Positions 15,082-58,295 are shown, counted from the stretch's first letter. The stretch is DNA of 64,000 nucleotides from an uncultured Candidatus Poseidoniales archaeon (GCA_964013535.1 CAXGWS010000003.1:36719-100718); one strand, 5' to 3'. The notes: generated by a model not told the origin, from the sequence alone. Program-made: numbers and translations.

Positions 15082-18000
15082 ATGGCTAAATCCCACAGTA
15101 TCATTGGAATGATGATTCTGGTTCTAATTTTACCACTTTATTCCCCTCTCGTAGCAGCCGATCCGCTACCTGAGGAGCCGCAAATAAACGCTATTTGGCT
15201 GGCTGATGAATTCGGTGAAAATTCCCACAACTACAGGGTCACTTTCGCTGATGGTGAATCATATCAGGCGATTATAGATGTTGTACATGAGAGAAATGGT
15301 GAATCAATCGATGTAGATGTTCTCCAATCTTGGGACTTAATCGATGGTTATCGAGTTGTTGACTTAGTGCTGAATACCAGCATACTATGGAACGATTTAG
15401 TTACCGTTTCAGCCACGATTACTCATTATGATGGTCAAGAATTAACTAATCCAATAGTTACTCACCGAGAATTTGAAATTGGCACTTGGAATCAGCCGAT
15501 GGATGACCATGAAATCATGTTGGAAACAACATGGTTACTCGACCAGACCTACAACAACTCTGATGGACAACAAGGATTCAATTTGGACTTTGCCGGTCAA
15601 GGCTGGCAACAAAGAACCGGTGATACTGTAGAATCATGGGAATTAGGCAATGGTAGCGTATTATTCCTTGAAACAACAGAAATGGGCAGTAATAATTTAT
15701 CTCTTGACCTACAATCGATTTGGAAGAATGAAACAATACAAAGCGGGACATTGACCTCTCAGGTTTTCGAAGCCATCGGCAGTGGCAACATGCACATTAT
15801 CGCATTAGATGATGAAGTTGAAACCTCGATATTAGTACAAGTTACAAATGCAGAACTAAATCGCTCAATAATCGAGGATGTAGTGTCCGAGCGACTGAAG
15901 ATAGATGCAAATGGAGTGCTAAATATTAGTTCAAACGAGGGTGAAAATTCATCAACAAGCATTGATGGTGATATTGGTGTATTTTACCTCGAAACATGGG
16001 ATGAGAACGGCGTTAGGAGATATTACGACCAAAGTTTTGAGGCGATAGCTGAAATGATTGTAATCGAAGAAGGAAGCAGGCTAGACATCGATATAAGCAC
16101 CCTCAGTTCAGGAGAGACTTGGGTTGAAGGGGCGAGAACTGCGCAATTAGAGGAATTAATCGGTTCGGGAACATTTGGTTTCTCCGAAAGCGACAATGAG
16201 TCATCAATAAGCATCAATGGAACAATCTATGACTTCCACACCAAAACAGAACAAGGCATAACATTAGTTGATGAATTACACATAGATGGCGACATAACTG
16301 GCGATGTTCAAGGTAATTTTGGTGTTGTTAGAGGTATTGAGTTGACTGGCCTTCAGGCAAATGCAACAGGGGTAGAATTTCCAGTCAATGTAATACACGA
16401 AGAATCTTGGTTTAACCTGACTGGTATCAACGGTGGTAACTTCTTTGATGGGGCAGGAATAGGTACCACTCACAACCAAACCTGGGATTATCAAGTCATC
16501 TACTCTGATTGGGATAATAGAACGGTTCGTTTGGTCTGGGAAGAATCAGGAGCCGATGCATCCAGCGGTGAAGAGTTCCCCGAGCGTAGTCCAATTGAGG
16601 TTCAGCCCGAGCCACCCGAAGTGGATGAAGCATTGGGAAATCTAACAGTAAGTAGGGAAACTGGCTTGATGCCGATACCTATGATGCCTGGTGATAGTAT
16701 AAGGCTTGACGGACAGCCTGGATTGACTCTAATTGTAACTGCTGAGTCATTGGAAAATGATCCACGAGACGGGCATAACTTCCATGTTGTAACATGGTCA
16801 GGTGTTTACGAAGGCGATGAGTCGGGAACTGCAACCGGAGCTATAATTGACGAAGGGCCGCTGAAAGGACTTATCTCAAGCGTCTCTCGACAACTTTCCA
16901 TTCCATTCGGAGAAGCCGGTTATCTTGCTAATTTTACTGAGACACAACTGCTTACTAGAGTCATTTCACCAGCAGTAGTAACGGCTGAAGAAAATTCTGC
17001 GCCGGTAGTCAACGCACTATACCTCCTCGAGGGATTAATAGTCTCAGAAGGAGGCAGTGTAGCTACGTTGATTGCCGAAGTTAACGATGTTGATTGGAAT
17101 CTAGAGCAGGTAACAGTTGACCTTAGCCCGATTGGTGGTCAAGTTGTGGTAATGAATGACCGAGGTGTTGATGGTGACACAGTAATCGGGGATGATAAGT
17201 ACTCAACACGGATTATCGTCCAAGGTTTGGAGGTAGGAGATTTCACACTCAATGTGGAAGCCATTGATTCATTCGATGTTTTGACTTCTTCCAGCGGTGA
17301 AATCTCTGTCGCCAATCTAGCGCCAAGGATGACGGCAGCAGAAATCTTGCCTAATCAAGGTCCTCGGGGAACAAATATGGTCGTTAATGTCGAGGCATAT
17401 GATGGTCATGGAGTTTCTAACATAAGTATTGATTTGCGAGATTTTGGTGGTGAATTGCTGCAAATGAACGAAAATTCGGGGATATGGACGACTATGATGA
17501 CTGTCCCGGAGGGGATGTCGCCTGGCACGCAAACGTTGGATTTCGTACTGGTTGACGGCTTAGGTAAAGTGGGAATAACCAATGTTTGGTTAAACGGTCA
17601 ACGGTCTGCAGATCATCAGTACGGCTTACATCACATCCCAAATGAAGAGTCCATCCCTATCGAAATCACCGTGGAAAACTCAGCCCCAACCTTCACACTT
17701 CCCGATGTAACAAAGTACACGCGTGGAGATGTTTCAAGCACTGTTGTTTTTGAGGTTGAAATCTCAGATTCGGATGGAATTACCAACGCTCGAGCAAATC
17801 TAGGAGTCTTCACACCATTAGGTAATCAACCCGGGTGGGTTTCTATGAATGACAATGGAATAAATGGAGATAGGGTTCCTCAAGATGGTATCTTTTCAGT
17901 TGAGATGTCGATAAGAACGAGCACACCATTGGGCACCCATGAAATTCAAATTCAAGCAATAGACAGTTTCGACGTTGCCACACCGGTTACTCCAGTATCC

Positions 18001-18177
18001 GTAATCGTAGAAGAAGACACTGATTTAATCCCCAGTTTGGATAGTGAATCTCTATCCAGTACGGTACTGGTTGTGATATTACTTGGATTCACGGCAATCA
18101 CCTTAGTTGCTTTGTTGTTTTTGATGCGTAAATCAAAAGACAAAGAATACCTTGGCGATAGGTTTGGTTTTGAGTAG
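15082..18177 (+). CDS. Large secreted surface protein with a C-terminal TM anchor (adhesin/S-layer-like)
   Basis: 1031 aa. N-terminal signal peptide, many N-x-S/T sequons, acidic composition, and a C-terminal hydrophobic segment followed by a short basic tail (LMRKSKDKEY). Confidence 0.6.
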   Translation: MAKSHSIIGMMILVLILPLYSPLVAADPLPEEPQINAIWLADEFGENSHNYRVTFADGESYQAIIDVVHERNGESIDVDVLQSWDLIDGYRVVDLVLNTSILWNDLVTVSATITHYDGQELTNPIVTHREFEIGTWNQPMDDHEIMLETTWLLDQTYNNSDGQQGFNLDFAGQGWQQRTGDTVESWELGNGSVLFLETTEMGSNNLSLDLQSIWKNETIQSGTLTSQVFEAIGSGNMHIIALDDEVETSILVQVTNAELNRSIIEDVVSERLKIDANGVLNISSNEGENSSTSIDGDIGVFYLETWDENGVRRYYDQSFEAIAEMIVIEEGSRLDIDISTLSSGETWVEGARTAQLEELIGSGTFGFSESDNESSISINGTIYDFHTKTEQGITLVDELHIDGDITGDVQGNFGVVRGIELTGLQANATGVEFPVNVIHEESWFNLTGINGGNFFDGAGIGTTHNQTWDYQVIYSDWDNRTVRLVWEESGADASSGEEFPERSPIEVQPEPPEVDEALGNLTVSRETGLMPIPMMPGDSIRLDGQPGLTLIVTAESLENDPRDGHNFHVVTWSGVYEGDESGTATGAIIDEGPLKGLISSVSRQLSIPFGEAGYLANFTETQLLTRVISPAVVTAEENSAPVVNALYLLEGLIVSEGGSVATLIAEVNDVDWNLEQVTVDLSPIGGQVVVMNDRGVDGDTVIGDDKYSTRIIVQGLEVGDFTLNVEAIDSFDVLTSSSGEISVANLAPRMTAAEILPNQGPRGTNMVVNVEAYDGHGVSNISIDLRDFGGELLQMNENSGIWTTMMTVPEGMSPGTQTLDFVLVDGLGKVGITNVWLNGQRSADHQYGLHHIPNEESIPIEITVENSAPTFTLPDVTKYTRGDVSSTVVFEVEISDSDGITNARANLGVFTPLGNQPGWVSMNDNGINGDRVPQDGIFSVEMSIRTSTPLGTHEIQIQAIDSFDVATPVTPVSVIVEEDTDLIPSLDSESLSSTVLVVILLGFTAITLVALLFLMRKSKDKEYLGDRFGFE

Positions 18178-29114: not shown

Positions 29115-29199
29115 GCGATTGCTAAATCAATCAACTTCATGATTTATCCGATTGTGGCTCAATCCAATAATACATAGAATAGAACAGTTACCAAACATC

Positions 29200-29976
29200 A
29201 TGGGTGACGACATACCGTTGGTAAAGGCAATCGATATGGCCAAAAAATATGGCGATTTTATCGCCCTTCACCCACTAAATGTCGAGGTTCATTCAGGTGA
29301 GTTTTTCGGTGTATTCGGGCCTAATGGTGCAGGTAAATCGACGTTCATCAAGTTGTTAACCGGTCAGTTAAAGCCGAGCAAAGGTAAGATTGAGGTCTTG
29401 GGTATCAATGCAACCAAGTCTCCACAAAAGGTCAAGGCCAATATTGGGATAGTTCCTGAATCCGAGTCGCCACCATCTTATTTGACTCCGGTAGAGTTTT
29501 TACAGTTCGTCGCTAAGTTAAGAGACATCGACAATAGTGAGTTCGAAGTAGAGTATTGGATTGAGTGGTTTGGTTTAGAAGAAAAAAGAAATACAATGTG
29601 TAAGGATTTGTCAAAAGGTCAACGACAGAAAGTCATGTTGGCTTCAGCATTTATTCACAAACCAAAGTTGCTATTCCTCGATGAGCCGTTTGCTAATCTT
29701 GATCCAATCTATCAACGGAAGTGTCGTGAATGGTTGCTCGATCACGTCAAGGCTGGTGGCACAATTTTTCTCTGTTCGCACGTTCTTGAGATGGCTGAAA
29801 GGATGTGTAATAGAATGGCGATAATCAATGATGGCAAAGTGCTGGCAGCTGGTACAGTTAGGGGCTTGAAAATGGACTCCTCAGAAACCTTGGAGGATGT
29901 CTTCATTCGTTTGGTTGGCAAATCGATTGAAGATGTGGAAAGGCAATTAGAACAAGAGGCGGCTGAGGAGGAGTAG
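29200..29976 (+). CDS. ABC transporter ATP-binding protein (ABC-2 type)
   Basis: Walker A GPNGAGKST, signature LSKGQRQKV and Walker B LLFLDEP. The ORF opens at 29152; the start at MGDD (29200) is preferred. Confidence 0.8.
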   Translation: MGDDIPLVKAIDMAKKYGDFIALHPLNVEVHSGEFFGVFGPNGAGKSTFIKLLTGQLKPSKGKIEVLGINATKSPQKVKANIGIVPESESPPSYLTPVEFLQFVAKLRDIDNSEFEVEYWIEWFGLEEKRNTMCKDLSKGQRQKVMLASAFIHKPKLLFLDEPFANLDPIYQRKCREWLLDHVKAGGTIFLCSHVLEMAERMCNRMAIINDGKVLAAGTVRGLKMDSSETLEDVFIRLVGKSIEDVERQLEQEAAEEE

Positions 29977-29978
29977 TT

Positions 29979-31673
29979 TTGCCGGGCGCTCACATATCTA
30001 CCAGAGAATGGGATGATAATGACTATTCGATCGCCTCGGCAAATCTTGGGACTCATTCTGGCGGTCAAAAATTATTGACTCCACTAAATGGTATATCTTC
30101 CTTCACAGCAACTTTCCAGGTTATGTTCAAAGAAGAATATCGCAAAAATGTCGAATTTGCTAAGGCCCGACAAATGGTTCTTTTCCCGCTTCTACTCGCT
30201 CTAGTGACCATGGTATCGACAGTTGGTTTACAGTTTTTAGTCGGTGATTCAGCCGCTCAAACTACAGATACAGAAGCCAACAGTTTTACTTGGCAAGAAC
30301 TACGCTTTGCTCTTCACTTGCCGTTATTGATGTTCAGTTTGGGAATGGGTACTTTCGCTTTCATGGGGCGAGACGCGTTGGTGAGACGGACTGCAACCAA
30401 GAATCATCTACTCGCCTCCCCCGCACTTCAACCACTGCCAAATTCAATGGCTCACTTCGCATATTTCATCAAGGATTTGGTATTTTACGTGTTATTGATT
30501 CTCACTCCAATCATTGTTGGTATGGGTATGGGCAAGGCCTTAGATACCTTTTTTGGCATTACTACTCCTTTGGAATATAGCAGTTTACCATGGACTTGGT
30601 TTGCTATGGTGGTGACTCTTGCTCAGGGTCTCGCAATTTCATTTCTTGCCTCAGCGTTGTGGATGAGAGGAAGGCCTTTCACAATCTTCGGACCCATAGC
30701 AGTTGTACTATTGGGCATCATCATCGGTGTCGGTGCTTTTGATGCAGAAATCGCAATAATAGGATTAGAAATTCAAACCGGAAAAAATCTTCTGTTTGGA
30801 TTGTTTGGTTTTGGAATTTGTATCTTACTGGGGTATTTGTCTTCGTTGCTAATAATCGATGACTTCGATGTTAATGTGGTTGAGAAAGGGGACCTCTTCA
30901 AACCAATTTATGCACGACTTTCATTCCTCGGTCGAGGTGAAATCAGACTCATTGTAGCTAAAGAATTCGTTGATTTGTTTAGGTCAGGCTCAATTAAGAA
31001 GATGGTAGTTTCATACTCCATACCGTTGGCCGTGCTGCTTGGCATGGCTTGGCTAATCGATTTTGCTGAGGCTCCAATACCGATTAACTTGCTATCATAT
31101 GCACCTTTCCTTGGATTCTTTGGCTTCAACTTTTATTCATGGTTAACAATACTGGATTCTCCAGAATTCATGAATGGTTTGCCAGTAAGAGTGCCGCAAC
31201 TCATTAGAGCCAAGGTGTTGGTTTATTTCTTAATCACATCTTGGATTTCTTTGATTTTCATAATTTTGATGGCTTGGCGCCTTGATGAGTGGACTTCTTT
31301 GCCGACAAGCATAGTTGTTATGTTCGCTAACTCAATCTATATCGTTGCCTTGACCGCCTTCCTAATGGGATTAAGGCCAAACAAAGCCATATTCGATGCG
31401 TCAATTATGATTTGGTTTTGGGTCGGAACAGTTTTGCCACTGCTCGGGTTGTTTTTGTTATCTTTTACGCAAGGGGATGTCTCTCTGTACGGAAATTGGT
31501 GGGAGCGTGCCTCTGAAGACGGATTGGCAGCCACTGCAGGTATGTACGATGAGACTATGGTTCGACAAGGCTATGTTGGTATGCTAGGAATTTCAGGATT
31601 CTTACTATTTGCCTCAGCAGTGCTTTGGAAGCTGATGGATCGTCGTTGGGGCAGTGCCGAATTCAGCAATTAA
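29979..31673 (+). CDS. Putative ABC-2 type permease (polytopic membrane protein)
   Basis: 564 aa with more than 10 hydrophobic helices, immediately downstream of the ABC ATPase. Confidence 0.45.
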   Translation: MPGAHISTREWDDNDYSIASANLGTHSGGQKLLTPLNGISSFTATFQVMFKEEYRKNVEFAKARQMVLFPLLLALVTMVSTVGLQFLVGDSAAQTTDTEANSFTWQELRFALHLPLLMFSLGMGTFAFMGRDALVRRTATKNHLLASPALQPLPNSMAHFAYFIKDLVFYVLLILTPIIVGMGMGKALDTFFGITTPLEYSSLPWTWFAMVVTLAQGLAISFLASALWMRGRPFTIFGPIAVVLLGIIIGVGAFDAEIAIIGLEIQTGKNLLFGLFGFGICILLGYLSSLLIIDDFDVNVVEKGDLFKPIYARLSFLGRGEIRLIVAKEFVDLFRSGSIKKMVVSYSIPLAVLLGMAWLIDFAEAPIPINLLSYAPFLGFFGFNFYSWLTILDSPEFMNGLPVRVPQLIRAKVLVYFLITSWISLIFIILMAWRLDEWTSLPTSIVVMFANSIYIVALTAFLMGLRPNKAIFDASIMIWFWVGTVLPLLGLFLLSFTQGDVSLYGNWWERASEDGLAATAGMYDETMVRQGYVGMLGISGFLLFASAVLWKLMDRRWGSAEFSN

Positions 31674-31720: not shown

Positions 31721-32305
31721 GTGGCGGCAGGGATACGGAAACTCATGGGGCATGCTGTAGCAGTCTGTGGAATGCCAGGCTCTGGTAAAGGTGAATTCGC
31801 CAATATTATCGCAGACAACGGAATCCCGGTTAGATCAATGGGAGACATGGTAAGGGCCGAAGTTAAACTTAGAGGTCTTGAAGGTAATCCGAATGTATTT
31901 GGCGAAGTTGCAGCAGATTTACGAGCAAAATTTGGCGAAGAGGTTTTGGCAATTCGCCTTGCAGATGAGGTGACGGAACTGATGAAAACTCACCCCATTG
32001 TATTGATTGAAGGGATGCGAGGTACCGCAGAATTTCAGATATTCAACTCGAGATGGGCGCCACGGTTCAGTAGTGTCGCTATCACTGCGAACCCCGAAGT
32101 GCGGTTTCAGCGAACCCAATCGAGAGGGCGCTTAGAAGACGGTGATAGAGAACAATTCCAAATTAGAGAAGCTAGAGAAGCTGGCTGGGGATTGCACACT
32201 CTAATCGAACAAGCCGACTATCAAATAAATAACGAATCCACATTGGAAGATTTGGTTATCTCAACAAATAGTTGGTTGACAAAGTTTAGAATAATTATTT
32301 CTTGA
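31721..32305 (+). CDS. P-loop nucleotide kinase-like protein (archaeal UPF0200 / dephospho-CoA kinase-like fold)
   Basis: Walker A VCGMPGSGKGEF; about 190 aa; family assignment tentative. Confidence 0.4.
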   Translation: MAAGIRKLMGHAVAVCGMPGSGKGEFANIIADNGIPVRSMGDMVRAEVKLRGLEGNPNVFGEVAADLRAKFGEEVLAIRLADEVTELMKTHPIVLIEGMRGTAEFQIFNSRWAPRFSSVAITANPEVRFQRTQSRGRLEDGDREQFQIREAREAGWGLHTLIEQADYQINNESTLEDLVISTNSWLTKFRIIIS

Positions 32306-32376
32306 ATGCATTAATTTATGGCCAGTGTGGCCATTTTTTATCATCCTTTCACCGAAGTGTTATAGTTGTCCAACGC

Positions 32377-33942
32377 ATGTCGTCAAGTGCAACGGCAGGG
32401 GGTAATGGTTTGGCGAGGAAACGTGGAAAGCGCGGAGATTCAAGAAAACGGCAGCGTGCACAACAAAGAGCACAGTATGACGAGTTGGATAAATATCCAG
32501 TTATGCCTCCACACGCATTTGCCAGAATTGTGCGTGATAAAGCCACTTTAAACATCATTTACCAAATTATTGAGCCGCCAATGACAAAGAAGGAAGAGCA
32601 ATACCGTGAAGAAATAATGGATATTTTTATCCGTTCATTGACTGCCAATATCGATGAGATAGATGCAAATCCCGAGGCTTACCTAAGAACTGCAATGGAC
32701 AAGGTCATCAAATCATATGGTATGAAGATTAACAAGAAGTCGAAATCTAAGATTTTCTACTATCTGCGCAGGGACTTGATTGGTTATGGTGACATGGATG
32801 TTTTGATGAACGACGCTAACGTTGAGGATATTTCTTTGGACGGAACCAATGTACCAATTTTTGCGTATCACAGAAAATTTGAATCTGTTGAAACAACCTG
32901 TATCTGGAAGACCGATGATGAATTGGAATCATATGTAATCAAACTAGCACAAAGGTGTGGCAAACACATTTCAGTCGCCGACCCGCTGCTTGATGCAACG
33001 TTAATGGATGGTTCTAGAATCGTTATGAAACTGGGTCACGAAGTGTCGACGAGAGGTTCATCATTTTGTATTAGAAGGTTCAAGGATGATCCGTTTTCTC
33101 CAGCGGATATTATTGCGTTTAGAACAATGTCATCATTGATGGTATCATACTTGTGGATTGCTTTTCAAAATGAAGTCCCAATGCTGTTTGTCGGCGGTAC
33201 TGCGTCAGGAAAAACCACGACGCTGAACGCAATGTGTATTTTCATTCCATGGCAGATGAAGATTGTATCAATCGAATCCACCAGAGAAGTAAACATTCCT
33301 CAACCTAACTGGGTACCAGGTCTAACAAGACAAGGGTTCGGTGGCGAGTCCAGTGAAGGTGTAATCGGTGAGTTCGAGTTATTGAAAGCGGCTTTGAGAG
33401 AACGGCCGGAGTACATCATCGTGGGTGAAATACGTGGTGCAGAAGCATATGTTCTGTTCCAAGCCATGGCAACAGGTCACTGTGCTTATTCTACTGTTCA
33501 CGCTGATTCTGTACCTTCACTGGTACACAGATTGGAGAACAAGCCGATTGATATTCCTCGTGTTTTACTGCCTGCTCTCGAGGCATGTTCGATACAAATA
33601 CAGACTAGGATTAACGGTAAGCGTGTGCGAAGAACCAAACAACTGGTAGAAATTGTTGGAATAGACCCCAACTCGCTTGAGGTAATCACTAACGAAGTAT
33701 TCCGTTGGGATGTAACTTCTGATGACTTTATTTTCAGTGGTAAGTCATATGTTTTGGAAAAAATCATGGTTAAACTAAACTATTCGCAAGACGACATGCG
33801 CAGAGAACTAAGAACTCGAAAGAGAATACTTGAATGGATGGTTCTAAACGATATAAGGAAAGCAGACCAAGTTTCCCAAATCGTTACAGAATATTATGTA
33901 CGTCCTAATGAAATCCTTGCTCGTGTCGACGGACTACGTTGA
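32377..33942 (+). CDS. FlaI/ArlI-type secretion ATPase (GspE/VirB11 family) of an archaeal type IV pilus-like system
   Basis: Walker A FVGGTASGKTTTLNAM, Walker B and Asp/His boxes (IIVGEIRGAEAY, GHCAYSTVHA). The ORF opens at 32302; the start at MSSSAT (32377) is the likely one. Confidence 0.75.
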   Translation: MSSSATAGGNGLARKRGKRGDSRKRQRAQQRAQYDELDKYPVMPPHAFARIVRDKATLNIIYQIIEPPMTKKEEQYREEIMDIFIRSLTANIDEIDANPEAYLRTAMDKVIKSYGMKINKKSKSKIFYYLRRDLIGYGDMDVLMNDANVEDISLDGTNVPIFAYHRKFESVETTCIWKTDDELESYVIKLAQRCGKHISVADPLLDATLMDGSRIVMKLGHEVSTRGSSFCIRRFKDDPFSPADIIAFRTMSSLMVSYLWIAFQNEVPMLFVGGTASGKTTTLNAMCIFIPWQMKIVSIESTREVNIPQPNWVPGLTRQGFGGESSEGVIGEFELLKAALRERPEYIIVGEIRGAEAYVLFQAMATGHCAYSTVHADSVPSLVHRLENKPIDIPRVLLPALEACSIQIQTRINGKRVRRTKQLVEIVGIDPNSLEVITNEVFRWDVTSDDFIFSGKSYVLEKIMVKLNYSQDDMRRELRTRKRILEWMVLNDIRKADQVSQIVTEYYVRPNEILARVDGLR

Positions 33943-33957
33943 TGGGGAGAGATTACT

Positions 33958-34977
33958 ATGGAACTAACTGCTTGGCAAAGATTCTGTAACAGAATTCTTG
34001 GTAGGATACTCAAAAAGCGAGCACGTAGAGACACAAACCTCTCTGAAAACCTCGTTAAGGGTTCGATGGGCATCATGCCAGAAGTCTACCTCTCAACAGT
34101 GATTTTTACTTCGATTGCTGTCGCTTTAGTATGCTGGGGAATAATCGGGATATTCTTTCTACCAGAAGTTGGGGTGATTGCGTTTTGGGAAAGCCTACAA
34201 GATCCTGCCACAATCAATCCATGTCTCGACTGGGAATATTGGGAGCCCGAGTTGGTAGACAAATCCAAACCAGGTAACGGCTGTCCGGATTACGCAACCA
34301 GAATTTTCCCAGCGCCGTTCAAAGTTTTGATTTTGGCTCTGTTTGGCGCGATAATCCCTTACTCAGGTTTCCTACTAGTGCGTGGCGGTGCAAAACGTGA
34401 GGCCGACCGACGCGGTGCTCAAATCGAAAAGTACCTGCCATATGCTGCTTCATACACTGCTGCAATGTCTGCAGCTAACGCCACACCAGCTAAGATTTTC
34501 CGTTCTTTAGCGATGAATAAAGACATTTACGGTGATGTGTCCGAAGATGCTGGATTGATATATCGAGATGTAACATTACTCGGTTATGATTTAATCACTG
34601 CGATAAAACTCAGCGTTGACCGTGCTGCATCGGTTTGGCTAACTGAGTTTTTCCAAGGTATGGTTGGAACACTAACTTCTGGTGGTCACTTGAAATTGTA
34701 TTTCCTAAATAGGGCAGAACACTACATGAGAGAGAACCGAACTCGTCTCCAGCAATTCCTCGAGTCCATTGCATTACTGGCAGAATCATATATCGTAGTC
34801 GCAGTTGCTATGCCGCTGTTCTTGATTGTAATGTTGGTAATTATGTTCTGGGTTTCTGGCTCTGGCGCACAGATGTCAGAAGGCATGCTGTATGGAATAG
34901 TTCTTGGTTTCATTCCAATGATCCACATTGCATATGCTGTTTTAGTTTACACAAGCAGCAAGGAACAAGAGATGTGA
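33958..34977 (+). CDS. FlaJ/TadC-like platform membrane protein, first T2SSF-type domain
   Basis: N-terminal TM, a cytoplasmic helical T2SSF-like domain (KYLPYAASYTAAMSAAN...LTSGGHL) and C-terminal TM helices. Confidence 0.55.
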   Translation: MELTAWQRFCNRILGRILKKRARRDTNLSENLVKGSMGIMPEVYLSTVIFTSIAVALVCWGIIGIFFLPEVGVIAFWESLQDPATINPCLDWEYWEPELVDKSKPGNGCPDYATRIFPAPFKVLILALFGAIIPYSGFLLVRGGAKREADRRGAQIEKYLPYAASYTAAMSAANATPAKIFRSLAMNKDIYGDVSEDAGLIYRDVTLLGYDLITAIKLSVDRAASVWLTEFFQGMVGTLTSGGHLKLYFLNRAEHYMRENRTRLQQFLESIALLAESYIVVAVAMPLFLIVMLVIMFWVSGSGAQMSEGMLYGIVLGFIPMIHIAYAVLVYTSSKEQEM

Positions 34978-34986
34978 GTTGAGATT

Positions 34987-36603
34987 ATGGCAAGGAAGAA
35001 GAAGAAAAAACTAGTTGTTGAACTAGATCTTCCTAAGGATGATAAAACGCTAAAAAATCTGTACATTATTATTTTCATATCACTAATTTTGGGATTGTCC
35101 TCCGGGATTATGTGGGCCACAAATTCAGGATTTATTCCAACTGCTAACGGTGAACCTATGTTCACCAACGTATACTGTGGAGCAACAGCACAGGATGAAC
35201 TTGGAACGGATTTTTCCGCTGAATTTAGCGGCTCAGTAAAGCCATCATATCAGGCTAACGAATCCTGCGCAATTCTCAAAGACCAACCAGACCAGTTAGA
35301 GTGGTCTGAGAATCCGTGGACGAACTTCGTTTCTAGAGCTAAGTCATTTGACGTTCCCGGTATGCCTGAACAAGTCAAGGGTAATGTTGTGATTCAACAA
35401 CCGATGTCATTAGATTGCAAAGTAGAAGCAGCAACTCCGACCAGTTATACCGTTGCGGTAAGAGATCCAGATCTCAACGTGCTGGGCTCATTCACTGGCG
35501 TTACTGGCAAGGCTAGCGATGTATGCGCGATAGGTATTGACAACATGGAGCCAGACCGTGGCTATGAAGTGGCCATATTTTCAAATGAGGATGGAAAAAG
35601 GTTGAATTCTGCTGAATTCGACGTGACACTCGATTTCTATGACGGTATTCCAACCAATATGAATAACAAATCATTTTGGTTGGGTCCAAAGTTCGACTTG
35701 GGACCAATCGATTTGCGGCCAATGATTTTCCTAAACTTCTTCGGCTTGACTTTCTTTTTCTTACTATATCCTGCATCTTACTACTGGGAGAGAGTCGAGA
35801 AGCGTAAGAATGAGATTGAGGAAAAGTTCCCGGACTTCTTGAGAGATATGGCGGAGTATTGGAAAGGTGGTCTCTCAATGACAGTTGCTGTTCAAACGCT
35901 GGTTAAATCGGAATATGGTGCGCTGAATGACGAAGTCAAGAAAATGTCCGACCAATTGAGTTGGGGAATTAAGTTCAGTGACGTTATCAAACAATTCTCG
36001 GAACGGGTTGGTACGCCGCTGGTAAAAAGAGCGATTACCCTAATAGCAGAGGCAGACCGCGCTGGAGGAAAAATCTCAGACATTCTTGTCACTGCAGCGA
36101 ATGACTCTCGTGAAATCAAGTTCCTTGAGGGTGAGAGAAATCGAGCCATAGGTTCGTACATTGCGGTTATATGGACCTCATATTTCGTATTTTTAGGGGT
36201 AATTACGCTGCTTGGTAAGATCTTTATTCCAGCTATTGCTAAATCCAATTCCGGTGATGAAGGAGGCGGAGATTCCGGTGGTGCGAACATTGGTAATATG
36301 ACAATTAGATCAATCGACCCGTTATTTTTCGTAACAGTATTTTATTACGGCGTGACTATGCAAGCACTCGGTAATGGTTCTATGGCTGGTTTGATGCAGA
36401 ATGGTAGGTTCTCAGCCGGATTTAAGCACTCGGGAATGATGATTGTCGCCGCTCTATTGGCGTTCAACTTGTTGGTATTCAGCCCCGATTTAATTGGTGA
36501 ATCGAGCCACGCAATTTCCCAACAAATCATTACTTCAGATTCAACTTATACAGTTGGATTAAACCCGTCAGGTGGTGGCTATGTTCCATCACCAATAATA
36601 TGA
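34987..36603 (+). CDS. FlaJ/TadB-like platform membrane protein, second T2SSF-type domain, with an N-terminal extracellular insertion of about 200 aa
   Basis: TM near residue 25, a soluble Cys-containing region to about residue 250, then a T2SSF-like cytoplasmic domain (EKFPDFLRDMAEYWKGGLSM...ADRAGGKISDIL) and C-terminal TMs with a Gly-rich loop. Confidence 0.55.
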   Translation: MARKKKKKLVVELDLPKDDKTLKNLYIIIFISLILGLSSGIMWATNSGFIPTANGEPMFTNVYCGATAQDELGTDFSAEFSGSVKPSYQANESCAILKDQPDQLEWSENPWTNFVSRAKSFDVPGMPEQVKGNVVIQQPMSLDCKVEAATPTSYTVAVRDPDLNVLGSFTGVTGKASDVCAIGIDNMEPDRGYEVAIFSNEDGKRLNSAEFDVTLDFYDGIPTNMNNKSFWLGPKFDLGPIDLRPMIFLNFFGLTFFFLLYPASYYWERVEKRKNEIEEKFPDFLRDMAEYWKGGLSMTVAVQTLVKSEYGALNDEVKKMSDQLSWGIKFSDVIKQFSERVGTPLVKRAITLIAEADRAGGKISDILVTAANDSREIKFLEGERNRAIGSYIAVIWTSYFVFLGVITLLGKIFIPAIAKSNSGDEGGGDSGGANIGNMTIRSIDPLFFVTVFYYGVTMQALGNGSMAGLMQNGRFSAGFKHSGMMIVAALLAFNLLVFSPDLIGESSHAISQQIITSDSTYTVGLNPSGGGYVPSPII

Positions 36604-36654
36604 GGAGTTGATTGCCTGCGCGATGATGAAGCCGCTCAAATCCACATTCTTGAG

Positions 36655-37056
36655 ATGCTTACATTGTTTTGGCTATTCTTCATGTCCGCCACATTTCTGA
36701 TTCGTATCGACGTCCCAGATTCTCGTTCTGTAGCTCATGATACAAGTCTTGAGGCTGCTGGCGAATCGGTTTTACAATACGGTTTGGGCCTTGATGCAGA
36801 GGTCGCAGGTGAAAACCGACTTGCTGAATTACTATCTCAAGCAGATAATGACGGCGCATGTACTCTACTTCAAGACGCACTTATGGCCGGTAAAGAAGCG
36901 AATTGTTGGTTGGCCAAAAATAGCGGCATCTCCAATCCATATGGGCTGGTTGGAACACCATCAGGCAATACGGTAACAGTGCATCATCTTCTAACCGTTG
37001 ATGATAATGTTTGGACAATAAGCTTGACTTTGTGGAATATTGGCGGTGGTGCTTGA
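36655..37056 (+). CDS. Hypothetical small protein with an N-terminal hydrophobic anchor (possible pilus-associated component)
   Basis: 133 aa starting MLTLFWLFFMSATFLI. Lies downstream of the platform genes and is translationally coupled to the next ORF. Confidence 0.3.
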   Translation: MLTLFWLFFMSATFLIRIDVPDSRSVAHDTSLEAAGESVLQYGLGLDAEVAGENRLAELLSQADNDGACTLLQDALMAGKEANCWLAKNSGISNPYGLVGTPSGNTVTVHHLLTVDDNVWTISLTLWNIGGGA

Positions 37057-37493
37057 TGCATCGTACCACTTGTACTCGTGATGAACGGGCTCAAATGTTG
37101 CTAGCAACGGGGGTAGTTCTTCTGTTATCCCTGCTTTCTATGGCCGTATTTAGTGTAAAAGTAGCAGGTTTAACTTCTGCTCACGAACCTAACGCCGATT
37201 CAGTTATCGAAACAACCAAGGAGGTTGTCGATGTATTGCCTTCACTAACTGAAAATCGTACAGAACTATGGGTAACTAACGGTGTGGAACGGTTAGATGC
37301 TGTTGAGTTAGCAATGTCAAGCGTGAACGATGACCTGTTACATCACGGCGAAATAAGAGGCGTTGAGATAAAAATGTTGAATATTGTAATGGTATCAATA
37401 GACTCAACAACCATCGAAATAAGTCTAGATTTAGGTGTTACCGATGATTCATCAACCTTGCAAAGCCAAGTTACTTTCACCATCAACGGTTAG
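37056..37493 (+). CDS. Candidate archaeal pilin-like protein (class III signal-peptide-like N-terminus)
   Basis: Start ATG overlaps the upstream TGA (TGATG). N-terminus MHRTTCTRDERAQ then MLLATGVVLLLSLLSMAVF, i.e. a charged region, RA, then a hydrophobic stretch as in prepilin-peptidase substrates. The ORF track opens at 37011. Confidence 0.3.
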   Translation: MHRTTCTRDERAQMLLATGVVLLLSLLSMAVFSVKVAGLTSAHEPNADSVIETTKEVVDVLPSLTENRTELWVTNGVERLDAVELAMSSVNDDLLHHGEIRGVEIKMLNIVMVSIDSTTIEISLDLGVTDDSSTLQSQVTFTING

Positions 37494-38173
37494 CCTCGTC
37501 TTTGATTCCAAGCGACATCCAAGTGATGTTCAATTTTTTCTAAATCACTCGACACTCTAGATATATCGACAACTGGCCATGAGGCAATTTTTGAACGTTC
37601 AATCAGTCCATCCTGGATTCTTCTAATCCGATCAAAATTGGCCATGTATCGGTCATGTCTTCTAAATGAGTGAGCATCGCGTGATTTAATCATCGACTTG
37701 TGTTTGTCTTCATCACTCACCGCCATTATTACGCCAACAGCAATTCCGCCAGATTCTATCCAGTTGCGAATCAATCGATCGCTTGGAATTATGTGTACTC
37801 CTTCAATCAATAAGTCAATACCTTCTCGCATTGCTCGATTAATGGTTGCATCAATGCCTTGCTCAACCGCCTTACAGGTGTCGACCCAGTCAATAATTGC
37901 GTCATTTGAATCACCGATCGAGAATGAGGAACGATGCAATGCTGGATTGGCATGGTCTTCATCAGTGGAACGGAGAATTTCTCTTATTGCGTCGGTGGAT
38001 ATTAATCGCGCAAATTTACTCTTAGCGCCAATGGTCATGGCCACAGTTGATTTTCCAGTAGCCGTTGCCCCCGCAATAATCAGCAGTCTTGGTGGACGTT
38101 TGGCGATGGTCCTTGCCGTTGTTCCAGCGAGACCGACCGTTCGAGCCATGGTGTATGTATGATGAACTGACAA
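37490..38173 (-). CDS. P-loop kinase of the 2-phosphoglycerate kinase-like family
   Basis: Walker A AGATATGKST, about 225 aa; resembles the archaeal 2PGK / ATP-binding domain family. Confidence 0.4.
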   Translation of the reverse strand: MSVHHTYTMARTVGLAGTTARTIAKRPPRLLIIAGATATGKSTVAMTIGAKSKFARLISTDAIREILRSTDEDHANPALHRSSFSIGDSNDAIIDWVDTCKAVEQGIDATINRAMREGIDLLIEGVHIIPSDRLIRNWIESGGIAVGVIMAVSDEDKHKSMIKSRDAHSFRRHDRYMANFDRIRRIQDGLIERSKIASWPVVDISRVSSDLEKIEHHLDVAWNQRRG

Positions 38174-51399: not shown

Positions 51400-53922
51400 G
51401 TGACATATTTGTCTAAAAACAGGATAAGAAGTCACTACCAGCGCCGTATTCTTACTTGGTTGGTTGATAACAGTGGCTCGGTATCTGAAGTTTCAAAATC
51501 ACTCAAACTCCAGACGCCTCATGCTTCATCTTCGTTGAGCGAATTAAGAAAAAGAGGGTTGGTGCACAGAGATGACGCTCATGGAATCCGAGGGGCGATA
51601 CACAGTATTACCCAAGCTGGTAGAAAACAATTAGAGGAAGATCGTCTAAGTCTGTATAAGAGATATGTGGCAAAAACAAATCAAGAATCTGATGGTATTG
51701 TGTTAGAAACTAAAGGCCGTGAATTGCTACTTTGTTATCATAAAAACCCACCAAACTCTTTGATTTCCCTACCACTATATCCGTATAGTGACAATTCCGA
51801 TGATGCAATAATCTCCAGTGGAACAGATGGGGTGATTTGGGCATCAGTCGTCCCCGATTCAACTCGATGGTATTCTACTGATACACTAAAGCAGGTTTCA
51901 CCACCGAATGAACTCGGTACGGGTACCTTAGATGCATGGTTGCAAACCACTGATTCATTTGCTCTAGTGCGGGCAATTTTGTTTGAGCCAATCAAGCAGT
52001 GGAATGTTCCACCAGGGACTGAATTTTCGACTCCGAATTTGCACTCTTCACCATTACCAAAAGTAATTACGACAGGGAAACACAGTATTGGAAACATTGT
52101 TGGGACTGAGCTTGGCGTCATGTGGGAGAATAGACTTCATGCTCACCTATCGTCTAATGTTGATATTAACATTCTAATCAACTCGTTTTCACAGGAGGCA
52201 TATGTAATGCGCAAAAATCCGGTTAAACCTGACGTGACAAATATCCCAATTGGTAGTCTGTTCGAATGGCTGAAGTTACGGCACAAGCGATTAGGTGAAA
52301 ATAAAATCACTGAGAAATTCCTTCACCTTAAATCAATCATCCAGAGTGACTCAATAAACGGATTGAGTTTTTCCTTGCAGAAGGAAATTGCGAAGGATTT
52401 TGGTTACTGTAATTGGATTGATGAAATTCCAAGAAATATCGAGATATCGAATCTCTCAAGTAATGGCCTAAAGGCTATAATTCGGCATTTAAAAAACAGC
52501 CTTGATGCAGAATATGTAATCGAATGGGACTGGCCAATTAATGACGATATAGAGTTTCTAAATCACTTGATAAGAGACACTAACTGCCGTCTGTTGGTAA
52601 CCAAAGTAGGTCCACCAGGGAATATTATCTCTACATTGGGAACATTAAATTCTCTATCAGATTTAGCAATGGTTCGGTTAGAATTGCCAAATCAACACTC
52701 TCTCGATATCAAACTAACCGGCGATTCAAGGCCACAAATGAGTATTTCTCACAGCGTCGTACCGGCCGATGCTGTTGAATTACTATCGGCTTTTAATGAT
52801 GGTAATTGGCAATTAGACTTGATGTCCGAGGTTTCAAGGGATTTTGAAACGAGTAGCCAAATTTGGCAGGCTTTGAGTAAATATCCTGATGGCGATGAGA
52901 TGTGGGCAAACAGTATTGAAACATCTAATCCATTGGCGGCATGGATTGCAACTCCTATCGAACACCGCCCAAGCCGATGGGTAAGAGTTCAAAATAAATT
53001 TGATACAAATTGGGCAGATTTACTGCCGCTTGAAAATTCTTCTGCAGAGTTAATCGCGGCAAGTTTACATCAAGGTAGCGAGAATTTTCGTTCAAATGCA
53101 ATTGATCAACTCGCTCAGCGATTTCTTTTAGACCATCAGCTGCTTATTGAAATCGAAAATTTAGACGGCAACTCGCTACAATCAAGTGGGATTTCAACCG
53201 CTATTCTATTGGTGTGCGATAAATTACCTGATGAATTTTCTAAGTATGTTACCTCGGCAGTAGATAATTGGTTAGACTATCCACTATTCCCTGCGAGGGT
53301 ACTTAGTGCCTTATTTACTAGTAATCAGCATGGTGATACAGACCGTTTTGGAGTTTACAACAAGGTTGTCCTAGCCTCTAAAATTCATCCAAAAGATTCG
53401 ATTTTGTTCAACTGGGGTCGTTACGTTGCTTGCCTAAAAAATTCTGAGACAATTCAAAATGAATTGATGCGGACATTTATGACATTACTACCTTATCATT
53501 GGTGGCAAGCAAACTCTTCAGATTGGCTGGTTAGTCAATTATCCAGTTCTGCTGGGCGCAGATGGTTGACCAATCAGACCATACCATGGCCAGCCTTAAT
53601 TTTTAGATTAGATGGCGAATTGTCAGGACCTCCCGGCTCACAAAGCAAATTTGTCAGGAAGATACCGCCAACTTCCGAGTTGCTTTTCATTCCCATAATG
53701 CAGGATTGTCTGGCTAAAGATTCACTCATGGATGTTTATGATTTAGCATCCAAGACCGAGGACAATAAATTCAACATAACCCCACGAACTCACCCCATGA
53801 TCGGGTATCTGGTTCGGTCGCTTCAAGAATGGCCAGATTTTGATAGTGATATAATTGACCAAGGTGACAAAATGACCGGGTGCTTGTTATTTGGTATTTC
53901 TTATCATAAAAATATCATTTAA
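51400..53922 (+). CDS. Large orphan protein (840 aa) with N-terminal winged-helix (MarR/ArsR-like) domain
   Basis: The N-terminal 90 aa (RRILTWLVDNSGSVSEVSKSLKLQTPHASSSLSELRKRGLVHR) look like a wHTH; the other 750 aa show no recognisable motif. Codon usage looks more AT-rich than neighbouring genes. Confidence 0.5.
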   Translation: MTYLSKNRIRSHYQRRILTWLVDNSGSVSEVSKSLKLQTPHASSSLSELRKRGLVHRDDAHGIRGAIHSITQAGRKQLEEDRLSLYKRYVAKTNQESDGIVLETKGRELLLCYHKNPPNSLISLPLYPYSDNSDDAIISSGTDGVIWASVVPDSTRWYSTDTLKQVSPPNELGTGTLDAWLQTTDSFALVRAILFEPIKQWNVPPGTEFSTPNLHSSPLPKVITTGKHSIGNIVGTELGVMWENRLHAHLSSNVDINILINSFSQEAYVMRKNPVKPDVTNIPIGSLFEWLKLRHKRLGENKITEKFLHLKSIIQSDSINGLSFSLQKEIAKDFGYCNWIDEIPRNIEISNLSSNGLKAIIRHLKNSLDAEYVIEWDWPINDDIEFLNHLIRDTNCRLLVTKVGPPGNIISTLGTLNSLSDLAMVRLELPNQHSLDIKLTGDSRPQMSISHSVVPADAVELLSAFNDGNWQLDLMSEVSRDFETSSQIWQALSKYPDGDEMWANSIETSNPLAAWIATPIEHRPSRWVRVQNKFDTNWADLLPLENSSAELIAASLHQGSENFRSNAIDQLAQRFLLDHQLLIEIENLDGNSLQSSGISTAILLVCDKLPDEFSKYVTSAVDNWLDYPLFPARVLSALFTSNQHGDTDRFGVYNKVVLASKIHPKDSILFNWGRYVACLKNSETIQNELMRTFMTLLPYHWWQANSSDWLVSQLSSSAGRRWLTNQTIPWPALIFRLDGELSGPPGSQSKFVRKIPPTSELLFIPIMQDCLAKDSLMDVYDLASKTEDNKFNITPRTHPMIGYLVRSLQEWPDFDSDIIDQGDKMTGCLLFGISYHKNII

Positions 53923-57053: not shown

Positions 57054-58295
57054 TTACAATCGTGTTTGATATTTGTATGTTCCATTGAATATATCTTCGA
57101 GTTCGGTTTCTGATTCAATCATTATCTCAATTGGGTCAATATTTTGTGGAATACACGAATTGATTTCTTTTGAACGGCCGTATCTACCTTTGCTAATGGT
57201 TCTTGCAGTGATTAATCCTAACATATCCAAACTCGAGATTAATCCAGAAACTCTGCGCTGTGTCAAGGCGTTTGTACCGAGGTGTCGACAAGCCTGCGAG
57301 TATATGTTGTATACTTCTCCAGTTTGTATATTTTTTAGACCGTTTTTCTCGTTGATTAGAATTGCTGCTAACACTATTTTTTGCTGATTCGGTAGCTTTG
57401 CAATCACTGGAGTCATCTGATCAGCTTCGATTTGGTGCTGGGCTAGTTTAACGTGATTTTGTTCGACTTTGACTGAGCCGCTAAGTTCTGCTTTTTCCGC
57501 CGACACTCTAAGCAAATCCAGTGCGCATCTAGCATCCCCATGTTCTTGGGCAGCAAGTGCCGCACACATTTCAATAACGCCATCACCTATGACACCTTCA
57601 TGAAGCGCAATTTTTGTTCGCTCTCGCAGGATATCTTGCAGTTGCTGAGCATCATATGGATTAAAAATCACATCCAGTTGGCCGAGCCTTGACCTAACTC
57701 TTGGATCGAGGAAATCGGTGAATTTGAGATCGTTTGAAATTCCAATTACACATGATCGTGCTTTTTTCAAAGAGGAGTTTAGATTGGTGAGGTTGTACAG
57801 TAAGTCATCTCCAACTTTTCTAACCAAATGGTCAATTTCATCAAGTACTATTATGAATACACCCTGTCTTGAATCCATACGCTTTACAAGCTCGCTGAAT
57901 ACTCTGTCAGTAGGCCATCCTGTGAATGGTATCTCATCTATTTCATGGGCTTCTAACAGTGAATTGCCAATGTGACTTAGCACTCTATATTGTGTGTCTA
58001 TTTGTCGGCAGTTAACAATAACAGTCTGAACAGACCTGTTTAATTGCTCTCCTTTCTCTTCGAGTTGCGCACAAACATAGTTTGTAACTGCGGTTTTTCC
58101 TGCACCCGTCACTCCATAAAGCGTCATATTCGAGGGAATATGGCCTTTGAGTGCTTCAACAAGATTGAATGATAGAGTTTCTATCTCATTCTTGCGGTGA
58201 GGTAGGTTGTTTGGATGATAGTTGTGGCGGAGAAATTCTTTGTTCTGGAACAGTGTTTTTCTAGACAGATAACCATCAAATATGTTTTCTGTCAC
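57054..58295 (-). CDS. orc1: Orc1/Cdc6 replication initiator (AAA+ plus C-terminal winged helix)
   Basis: LPHRKNEIETL, Walker A YGVTGAGKTAV, Walker B VLDEIDHL, sensor regions and a C-terminal wH; 413 aa. Confidence 0.85.
   Translation of the reverse strand: MTENIFDGYLSRKTLFQNKEFLRHNYHPNNLPHRKNEIETLSFNLVEALKGHIPSNMTLYGVTGAGKTAVTNYVCAQLEEKGEQLNRSVQTVIVNCRQIDTQYRVLSHIGNSLLEAHEIDEIPFTGWPTDRVFSELVKRMDSRQGVFIIVLDEIDHLVRKVGDDLLYNLTNLNSSLKKARSCVIGISNDLKFTDFLDPRVRSRLGQLDVIFNPYDAQQLQDILRERTKIALHEGVIGDGVIEMCAALAAQEHGDARCALDLLRVSAEKAELSGSVKVEQNHVKLAQHQIEADQMTPVIAKLPNQQKIVLAAILINEKNGLKNIQTGEVYNIYSQACRHLGTNALTQRRVSGLISSLDMLGLITARTISKGRYGRSKEINSCIPQNIDPIEIMIESETELEDIFNGTYKYQTRL

Follow-up and report, generated by a model that had tools for sequence, protein, structure and literature searches.

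Gene content and conservation of the locus

A 64,000-nt stretch of DNA from an uncultured Candidatus Poseidoniales archaeon (GCA_964013535.1, CAXGWS010000003.1:36719-100718), which was analyzed as a whole and is called the window in the following, contains five open reading frames (ORFs) in series on the plus strand, which overlap or are separated by 9-15 nt. They encode an ATPase, two membrane proteins that each represent one half of a platform protein, and two small proteins with prepilin-like N-termini (Table 1; the first small ORF had originally been listed as 36655-37056, 133 aa). A prediction made from the window alone had described the locus as a type IV pilus or Tad-like locus without archaellins. 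The analysis presented here makes it probable that the five genes, which form an operon, encode a type IV pilus (T4P)-like machine for the assembly of a type IV filament, which belongs to the euryarchaeal 'clade 2' and is distinct from the archaellum.

Related loci were collected by scanning one genome per GTDB species. This yielded 80 loci, 71 of Marine Group II (MGII; records labelled Poseidoniaceae, Thalassarchaeaceae, or 'Poseidoniales') and nine of Marine Group III (MGIII; the Marine Group III/Poseidoniia set), and the presence of each gene was determined by tblastn with each of the window proteins. All 66 MGII loci in which the DNA reaches far enough contain both small genes in the same order, and both platform genes were found in 69. 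The 66 Poseidoniales loci with sufficient DNA have all retained the five genes in the same order and with the same length and frame, which is far beyond chance. The locus is confirmed as a real operon. The synteny comparison across Poseidoniales metagenome-assembled genomes (MAGs), which the original prediction had proposed as a check, is thus in its favor, and the nine MGIII loci add further support.

The ATPase gene is the most conserved gene of the neighborhood in the tblastn comparison of the related loci (81-98% identity across the 71 MGII loci, 56-58% in MGIII). In the records labelled Thalassarchaeaceae the ATPase is 84-89% identical, compared to 67-79% for the upstream ATP-binding cassette (ABC) ATPase and 50-55% for an enoyl-CoA hydratase. 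This very high conservation suggests that the system is under strong selection. One operon with full MGII synteny and an ATPase that is 91% identical was found in a MAG named 'Verrucomicrobiales bacterium isolate ARS100' (NZEQ01000077.1), and this contig is probably mis-binned Poseidoniales DNA.

Table 1. Features of the operon and its 5' flank, in window coordinates.
Feature	Position	Strand	Size	Remarks
ATPase gene	32377-33942	+	521 aa	FlaI/GspE/VirB11 superfamily, closest to Archaeoglobus fulgidus GspE (afGspE)
Platform gene 1, N-half of FlaJ/TadC type	33958-34977	+	339 aa	One T2SSF domain, ~4 transmembrane segments
Platform gene 2, C-half of FlaJ/TadC type	34987-36603	+	538 aa	One T2SSF domain, ~200-aa insert
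Insert of platform protein 2	35116-35721	+	Residues 44-245	Extracellular site predicted
Shine-Dalgarno-like GAGGAG	36602-36607	+		8 nt 5' of the putative CTG start of the first small gene
Pilin-like protein 1	36616-37056	+	146 aa	DUF7288-like; length counted from putative start CTG 36616
TGATG	37054-37058	+		Stop/start overlap of small genes 1 and 2, read from the sequence
Pilin-like protein 2	37056-37493	+	145 aa	DUF7261-like; length counted from the ATG inside TGATG
Hairpin and T-run	32318-32344	+		Perfect 7-bp stem ATGGCCAGTGTGGCCAT, then TTTTTATCAT; from a scan for terminator-like elements
P-loop nucleotide-kinase-like gene	31721-32305	+		Pfam AAA_17 2.3e-11, AAA_18 4.1e-9

The ATPase

The assignment of the first gene, which encodes a secretion ATPase of the hexameric type, to the FlaI/GspE family of ATPases was borne out, because Pfam recognized a T2SSE domain (1.1e-25) and all four nucleotide-binding motifs are intact, i.e., the Walker A motif GGTASGKTT, the Asp box IVSIESTRE, the Walker B motif PEYIIVGEIR, and the His box GHCAYSTVH. 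The C-terminal domain PilB3_C was matched weakly (19.8 bits, cutoff 27), but it is significant in the orthologous MGIII ATPase (32.2 bits) and reaches 31.5 bits in a haloarchaeal comparator. The top NCBIfam match is the FlaI equivalog model (5e-118), with a score of 395 bits that falls short of the cutoff of 550, and among solved structures in the PDB afGspE ranks first (2OAP, 3.9e-117, residues 38-516), followed by FlaI (4e-78) and CpaF (7.6e-36). Judged by these sequence comparisons, the ATPase is not the FlaI of an archaellum. The MGIII ATPase carries a Lys/Glu-rich C-terminal extension of about 190 aa that is absent from MGII, as exemplified by MGIII locus L074 (9860-12037).

The split platform

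The original prediction of two separate membrane proteins with T2SSF domains holds. Pfam found exactly one such domain in each of them (gene 1: 1.9e-12; gene 2: 3.6e-12, residues 284-408), and the alignments with the ArlJ/FlaJ models of NCBIfam are complementary. Platform protein 1 aligns with the N-terminal half (52-223 of 555 and 4-171 of 465) and platform protein 2 with the C-terminal half (224-448 of 465 and 312-449 of 555). The two genes therefore represent one canonical two-domain platform that is literally split. The split had been set off from a canonical FlaJ, and it is indeed real, yet it is not unusual for this kind of system, as two tadC genes are present in many euryarchaeal clade 1 and clade 2 systems (Makarova et al., 2016; PMC4858521). 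The two proteins each correspond to one half of FlaJ, which points to the euryarchaeal form of the split rather than to an import of TadB/TadC.

Platform protein 2 contains an insert of about 200 aa with four cysteines between its first two transmembrane segments (residues 25-43 and 246-264). Based on the flanking transmembrane segments and the cysteines, the insert is probably extracellular. It has no Pfam match at E<=10 and evolves fast, yet it is present in MGII, with a median identity of 46% and 33% in two groups of loci, compared to 87% and 70% for the adjacent T2SSF domain in the same two groups. The part of platform protein 1 that belongs to the cytoplasmic domain has a median identity of 89% in the closer MGII loci. 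No counterpart of the insert was detected in MGIII, where the orthologue of platform protein 2 has a length of 395 aa.

The two small proteins

The second small protein, encoded by the last ORF, has the N-terminus MHRTTCTRDERA followed, after the putative cleavage site, by QMLLATGVVLLLSLLSMAVF. The homologues share the pattern M-x(5-15)-[AG]-Q-M-L-L-A-T-G-V-V-L-L-M-S-L-L-S-M, the core [A/G]-Q-M-L-L-A-T-G of which is invariant in 94 aligned homologues, in agreement with the prepilin-like N-terminus that had been proposed for this ORF. However, such an N-terminus had been noticed only there, and the first small protein carries one too. Its conserved head LRDDEAAQIHILEM is located 5' of the previously listed ATG 36655, and a start at this ATG would drop the signal sequence. 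When the reading frames of the homologues were extended upstream before the N-termini were compared, all MGII homologues were found to begin with [M/V/L]-R-x-D-[DE]-x-[AG]-Q-[VI]-H-I-L-E-M-L-T-L-F-W-L-F-F-M. The homologous start in the window is CTG 36616, 39 nt upstream of the ATG, and from there the protein begins with LRDDEAA, followed after the putative cleavage site by QIHILEMLTLFWLFFMSATFLI.

Most loci have ATG, GTG, or TTG as the codon at the homologous position, and CTG is found in the window and two further loci (L001 and L068). A Shine-Dalgarno-like GGAGG/GAGGTG is present about 8 nt 5' of the start in most loci, and the window has GAGGAG. No ATG, GTG, or TTG lies between CTG 36616 and the preceding stop codon, and gene callers assign 146 aa to most homologues in the databases. 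Taken together, these observations indicate that the first small gene almost certainly starts at 36616, with CTG as the putative start codon. In both the window and L001, the gene shares its reading frame with the platform gene before it, and a single TGA lies in between. A frameshift or a read-through of this stop codon was considered and rejected, because the frames differ in other loci, e.g., L005, which have a start codon and a Shine-Dalgarno-like motif at this position. The CTG start is therefore the simpler reading.

The original prediction had also named a TGATG stop/start overlap of the two small genes as an indication of translational coupling. The overlap is present at that site, and 53 of 64 related loci retain an overlap of 1 nt or 4 nt.

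In both small proteins, [A/G]-Q and the about 20 hydrophobic residues after it are essentially invariant, and the N-region that precedes them is variable in its sequence and length. This resembles a class III (prepilin-type) signal pattern with putative cleavage before the Gln, and the class III-like N-termini of both proteins are conserved across 64-72 loci. Counted from the putative cleavage site, both proteins have Q at +1, and the first has E at +6, while the second has no Glu. The two small proteins are not recognizable paralogs, as hhalign detected nothing beyond the N-terminus (probability 0.2).

AlphaFold2 models, which rest on alignments of database homologues, were obtained for both proteins. 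The first protein is predicted to be an alpha/beta protein with a helix of residues 5-28, three further helices, and a four-stranded sheet (predicted local distance difference test score, pLDDT, of 74), the second to have a helix of residues 5-39, two further helices, and a three-stranded sheet (pLDDT 82). Two Cys residues are invariant in the alignment of the homologues of the first protein, which fits an extracellular domain. Neither protein has sequence relatives in the PDB. A phmmer search with the first protein against 1.84 billion representatives yielded only 50 matches with 32-93% identity, all of which apparently belong to the same family, either as close relatives or as fragments, and no distant homologues were evident. 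Homologues of both small proteins are on record on contigs of 1.4-2.1 Mb.

Related clusters in MGIII and haloarchaea

In the MGIII operon of locus L074 (MIYU01000012) the two trailing small genes encode proteins that begin with MQDKAQMHVLEV and MINKKGQLLLMAG, and the MGIII and MGII versions of the first small protein can be aligned over the full length. Two further genes upstream encode a 329-aa protein with the canonical archaeal pilin head DDA followed by VTPVISTVLILGIM (VTPVIS) and weak matches to DUF7289 and Pilin_N, and a 149-aa DUF7266-like protein (4.8e-5). PilA-type pilin heads (..A[VI][ST]P[VI]I..) were found in eight of the nine MGIII loci, in contrast to the window and all 71 MGII loci, where none is present within 10 kb. 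In two MGIII loci further PilA-type heads (..EQAVSPVIAVILMVAITVVLAAV) are located a few kb from the operon (L073, ~19566, minus strand; L079, ~16925, minus strand).

A tblastn search of plasmids with the ATPase retrieved haloarchaeal clusters, including one of Halobaculum halophilum (NZ_CP058531, 55760-64241). This cluster starts with a Pilin_N gene, a hypothetical gene, a gene for an ATPase with T2SSE and PilB3_N/C domains, and a gene for a fused 679-aa T2SSF protein. These are followed by genes for proteins matching DUF7287 (5e-32), DUF7288 (2e-65, 220 bits), DUF7261 (2e-4, 22 bits, itself only a weak match), DUF7266 (5e-25), and DUF7289 (6e-50). The DUF7288 protein starts with MRAQAHTLEGLIAGL and shares a QxHxLE head with the first small protein of MGII, and the DUF7261-like protein contains VERAQMFLIGGLALAL.

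Archaellum genes and prepilin peptidase

The Pfam scans took in all major ORFs of the 64-kb window. None of them contains an archaellin (PF01917), FlaH/ArlH, FlaF/G (ArlF/G), FlaC/D/E, or ArlX domain, so the predicted lack of archaellin, FlaH, and FlaF/G extends beyond the locus itself. In two MAGs the archaellum operon has been assigned to specific contigs, NZRR01000031 in EAC30 and PBGS01000033 in SP3054 (Tully, 2019; PMC6336850, Supplementary Table 3). The pilus locus is located on other contigs of the same MAGs, i.e., NZRR01000042 in EAC30 (L051) and PBGS01000014 in SP3054 (L040). Domain searches, the 66 MGII and nine MGIII loci, and these two MAGs all agree with the original proposal of a pilus-like machine rather than an archaellum.

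In the comparison of the two MGII families flaB was annotated in 86% of the MGIIa and 26% of the MGIIb genomes, flaH in 86% and 29%, and flaK in 90% and 16%, and flaI and flaJ do not appear in the table (Tully, 2019; PMC6336850). Their omission fits with a second, ubiquitous flaI/flaJ-like pair. 'Additional' flaJ, flaI, and tadC genes have been listed, without interpretation, as flagellar components of MGIIa (Orellana et al., 2019), and the pilus locus may represent these genes.

The only GxGD membrane protease of the window was considered as a prepilin peptidase and rejected, because it is of the presenilin/signal-peptide-peptidase type and not of the A24 type. The gene (6856-9030, plus strand) encodes 724 aa. 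The C-terminal ~200 residues form the presenilin/signal-peptide-peptidase domain (PF06550, 1e-48, GLGD motif), and the N-terminal region of about 500 aa has no Pfam match and is an unusually long extension for a presenilin homologue of archaea.

Neighboring genes and other features of the window

The 64-kb window represents ordinary core chromosome with an even base composition, and it includes genes for tRNA synthetases, Cdc6/Orc1, NadA, and MoaC/E. The hairpin with T-run between the P-loop kinase-like gene and the ATPase gene likely marks the 5' boundary of the operon. It could be the terminator of the upstream gene and/or a TATA-like element of the operon. The P-loop kinase-like gene is present directly upstream, as had been noted, but its membership in the machine is not supported. 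Its kinase matches in NCBIfam are all sub-threshold, and tblastn revealed no homologue in six MGII loci and in all nine MGIII loci. Because of this patchy distribution and the intervening hairpin, it is probably a mere neighbor outside the machine, and a functional tie was rejected. A tie to the downstream gene (37490-38173) was also rejected, as this gene is convergent and resembles 2-phosphoglycerate kinase, with an NCBIfam match below threshold.

Directly upstream of the P-loop kinase-like gene, 29152-31673 (plus strand) encodes an ABC ATPase and a 564-aa polytopic membrane protein without a family match. Synteny of the pair with the pilus operon is seen in most MGII loci, the pair was not found in the MGIII loci, and no functional link to the operon is evident. 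Three large ORFs without a Pfam match may encode surface proteins (15082-18177, plus strand, 1031 aa; 10328-12826, minus strand, 832 aa; 51400-53922, plus strand, 840 aa), the first of which begins with the signal-peptide-like sequence MAKSHSIIGMMILVLILPLYSPLVAA. A replication origin might be located in an intergenic region adjacent to the cdc6/orc1 gene (57054-58295, minus strand).

Proposed function and alternative explanations

If the operon encodes a filament assembly machine, the two small proteins would be inserted into the membrane, and an A24 prepilin peptidase of the FlaK/PibD type encoded elsewhere would cut them between [A/G] and Q. The T2SSF domains on the cytoplasmic side of the heterodimeric platform would be the docking site of the ATPase, and ATP-driven lifting of the small proteins from the membrane would allow their hydrophobic helices to pack as the core of a filament. 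As only two of five pilin-like genes have been kept and no PilA-type gene is present within 10 kb, the two proteins would most likely be a priming or minor-pilin pair for a major pilin encoded in trans, or form a thin or short fiber of their own. The likely role would be attachment to surfaces such as particles or phytoplankton. The haloarchaeal relatives, i.e., PilB3-C3 and PilB1-C1 of Haloferax and pil-1 of Halobacterium, have been shown to function in adhesion, and for MGII this role is inferred.

Several observations weigh against this interpretation. To our knowledge, no surface filament of MGII has been studied experimentally. The first small protein has no Pfam match and its MGIII orthologue matches DUF7288 only below the cutoff of 27 (7.7e-5, 23.6 bits), as does the second small protein for DUF7261 (1.3e-3, 19.4 bits). 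A charge is not consistently found at -2 of the putative cleavage site, where A, K, R, E, T, S, and V occur, in contrast to classical FlaFind sites. The predicted globular domains are of the alpha/beta type and not the immunoglobulin-like sandwich of solved archaeal pilins, and Foldseek found no significant match in the PDB for either of them. Neither an A24 prepilin peptidase (Pfam and motif scan) nor a candidate for a major pilin is present in the 64-kb window, and flaK is annotated in only 16% of the MGIIb genomes (Tully, 2019; PMC6336850), although the locus has been kept.

Some of the same facts can be explained by a short pseudopilus or a device for the assembly or secretion of surface proteins, comparable to the bacterial type II secretion system or the bindosome assembly system (Bas) of Sulfolobus, instead of a long adhesive pilus. 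The small proteins would then be a piston or stub that assists in the export or positioning of other proteins, either secreted ones or ones of class III. The presence of just two small pilin-like genes, with no PilA-type pilin within 10 kb in any of the 71 MGII loci, is in agreement with such a device, and so is the insert of the platform, which is predicted to be extracellular and was found in MGII but not detected in MGIII. The degree of ATPase conservation, together with the independence of the locus from the archaellum content, suggests a core rather than an accessory role. Models of the Bas system match as well, but far below their NCBIfam cutoffs (BasE 195 versus 1000 bits; BasF 31.6 and 14.7 versus 1300 bits). 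Furthermore, the locus has no linked substrate genes, the homologous clusters of haloarchaea and MGIII encode pilins of the Pilin_N/DUF7289 type, which are typical of true pili, and PilB3-C3 of Haloferax is a well-known case of a system with pilins encoded at other sites of the genome. We therefore regard a pseudopilus or secretion device as unlikely, although it is the strongest competitor of an adhesive filament.

A variant of this explanation places the change within the lineage. MGII would have reduced an ancestral multi-pilin T4P to a minimal, nearly universal, and unusually conserved machine, made up of the ATPase, the heterodimeric platform with its lineage-specific 200-aa extracellular domain, and only two pilin-like subunits. 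It would serve as a short pseudopilus for a core surface function, e.g., the export or positioning of surface or hydrolytic proteins, and would no longer assemble an adhesion pilus. In most MGIIb the processing might then be performed by something other than the annotated FlaK. We consider this scenario improbable.

It is very improbable that the small proteins are uncleaved bitopic accessories of the platform, similar to ArlF/ArlG or bacterial PilN/PilO, with all filament subunits encoded elsewhere. The non-conserved -2 position fits such proteins, the predicted helix-plus-sheet ectodomains differ from solved archaeal pilins and recovered no pilin with Foldseek, and a stoichiometric coupling via overlapping stop and start codons would fit a fixed complex. 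However, an invariant small residue plus Gln after a variable N-region is the signature of a processing site and not of a plain membrane anchor. The same motif heads the haloarchaeal DUF7288/DUF7261 proteins within sets of pilins, and proteins of this type have been classified as pilins (Makarova et al., 2016; PMC4858521).

The interpretation as an archaellum operon, or as a remnant left by its degeneration, is effectively refuted: the FlaI and ArlJ/FlaJ models are matched, a KEGG-style annotation would name the genes flaI and flaJ, and Orellana et al. (2019) count the 'additional' genes as flagellar components, but the FlaI score is below its cutoff with afGspE as a much better PDB match, the window is devoid of the archaellum domains listed above, bona fide archaellum operons are present on other contigs of the same MAGs, the locus also occurs in records labelled Thalassarchaeaceae, a family mostly without annotated flaB, flaH, and flaK, and five intact and conserved ORFs are not a remnant.

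Implications for MGII

Among the planktonic archaea of the surface ocean, MGII (Poseidoniales) are the most abundant, and they have remained uncultured. How they attach to particles and phytoplankton has been discussed almost wholly with regard to the archaellum operon, which is missing from about half of MGIIb (Rinke, 2019; Tully, 2019). The putative type IV filament machine described here is independent of the archaellum and was found in every MGII locus examined, including those labelled Thalassarchaeaceae, and thus it is a candidate surface-filament system for all MGII. As the pilus locus would receive the same annotation, flaI and flaJ annotations are unreliable markers of an archaellum in MGII. 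A description of this locus in MGII was not found in the literature that could be searched. The MGII papers deal with the archaellum only, and the pilus locus has apparently gone unremarked in them.

Comparison with known systems

The archaellum (ArlB/ArlI/ArlJ/ArlH/ArlF/ArlG) has a homologous ATPase and platform and follows the same general principle of assembly. It differs by the presence of archaellin, ArlH, ArlF/G, and ArlC/D/E/X, whereas the MGII locus has a split platform and an ATPase below the FlaI cutoff, and the MAGs mentioned above encode a separate archaellum operon in addition to the pilus locus.

The bacterial Tad/Flp pilus resembles the locus in having two platform proteins with a single T2SSF domain beside the ATPase, followed by small pilin genes, and its ATPase CpaF is recognizable in the comparison. 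However, CpaF is much more distant from the window ATPase than afGspE or FlaI, and Pfam found none of the typical Tad/Flp parts in the window (the Flp pilin with its G/XXXXEY motif, TadV, TadZ, and the secretin RcpA). The designation 'Tad-like' can thus be kept in a broad sense only.

GspE of A. fulgidus (2OAP/2OAQ) is the best relative of the ATPase with a solved structure, and the alignment includes the C-terminal domain. The likeness is limited to the ATPase, and we know of no established biological role for the system to which afGspE belongs.

The MGIII operon, e.g., that of L074, is orthologous. Its ATPase is 57% identical, and the split platform and the two trailing small genes are arranged as in MGII. 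It differs from MGII by the two additional upstream genes for pilin-like proteins, by the extended C-terminus of the ATPase, and by a shorter second platform half in which the insert was undetected.

The euryarchaeal 'clade 2' systems have been described as containing an ATPase/TadC module, often with two tadC genes (Makarova et al., 2016; PMC4858521). Its pilins are either PilA proteins encoded elsewhere (PilB3 type) or a dedicated set (PilB4 type of Haloferax volcanii) (Makarova et al., 2016; PMC4858521, Fig. 4B). The haloarchaeal clade 2 cluster shares with MGII an ATPase with a T2SSE domain, to which a PilB3_C-type C-terminal domain, matched below the cutoff in the window, may be added, and the T2SSF platform directly after it. 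The heads [A/G]-Q-x-H-x-L-E of the DUF7288 protein and ERAQM(F/L)L of the DUF7261-like protein occur in the same order as in MGII. Differences are also apparent. The haloarchaeal cluster has five pilin-like genes, compared to two in MGII, which has no DUF7287, DUF7266, DUF7289, or Pilin_N gene nearby. The haloarchaeal platform is fused, and that of MGII is split and has the insert in its second half. The haloarchaeal ATPase has 989 aa with a long N-terminal extension, which the MGII ATPase does not have, and the MGII small proteins match the haloarchaeal families sub-threshold in Pfam. Because these weak matches to DUF7288 and DUF7261 occur in the same gene order after pilB-pilC, the MGII locus is regarded as a probable reduced member of the euryarchaeal 'clade 2' T4P, a known kind of system in a new lineage.

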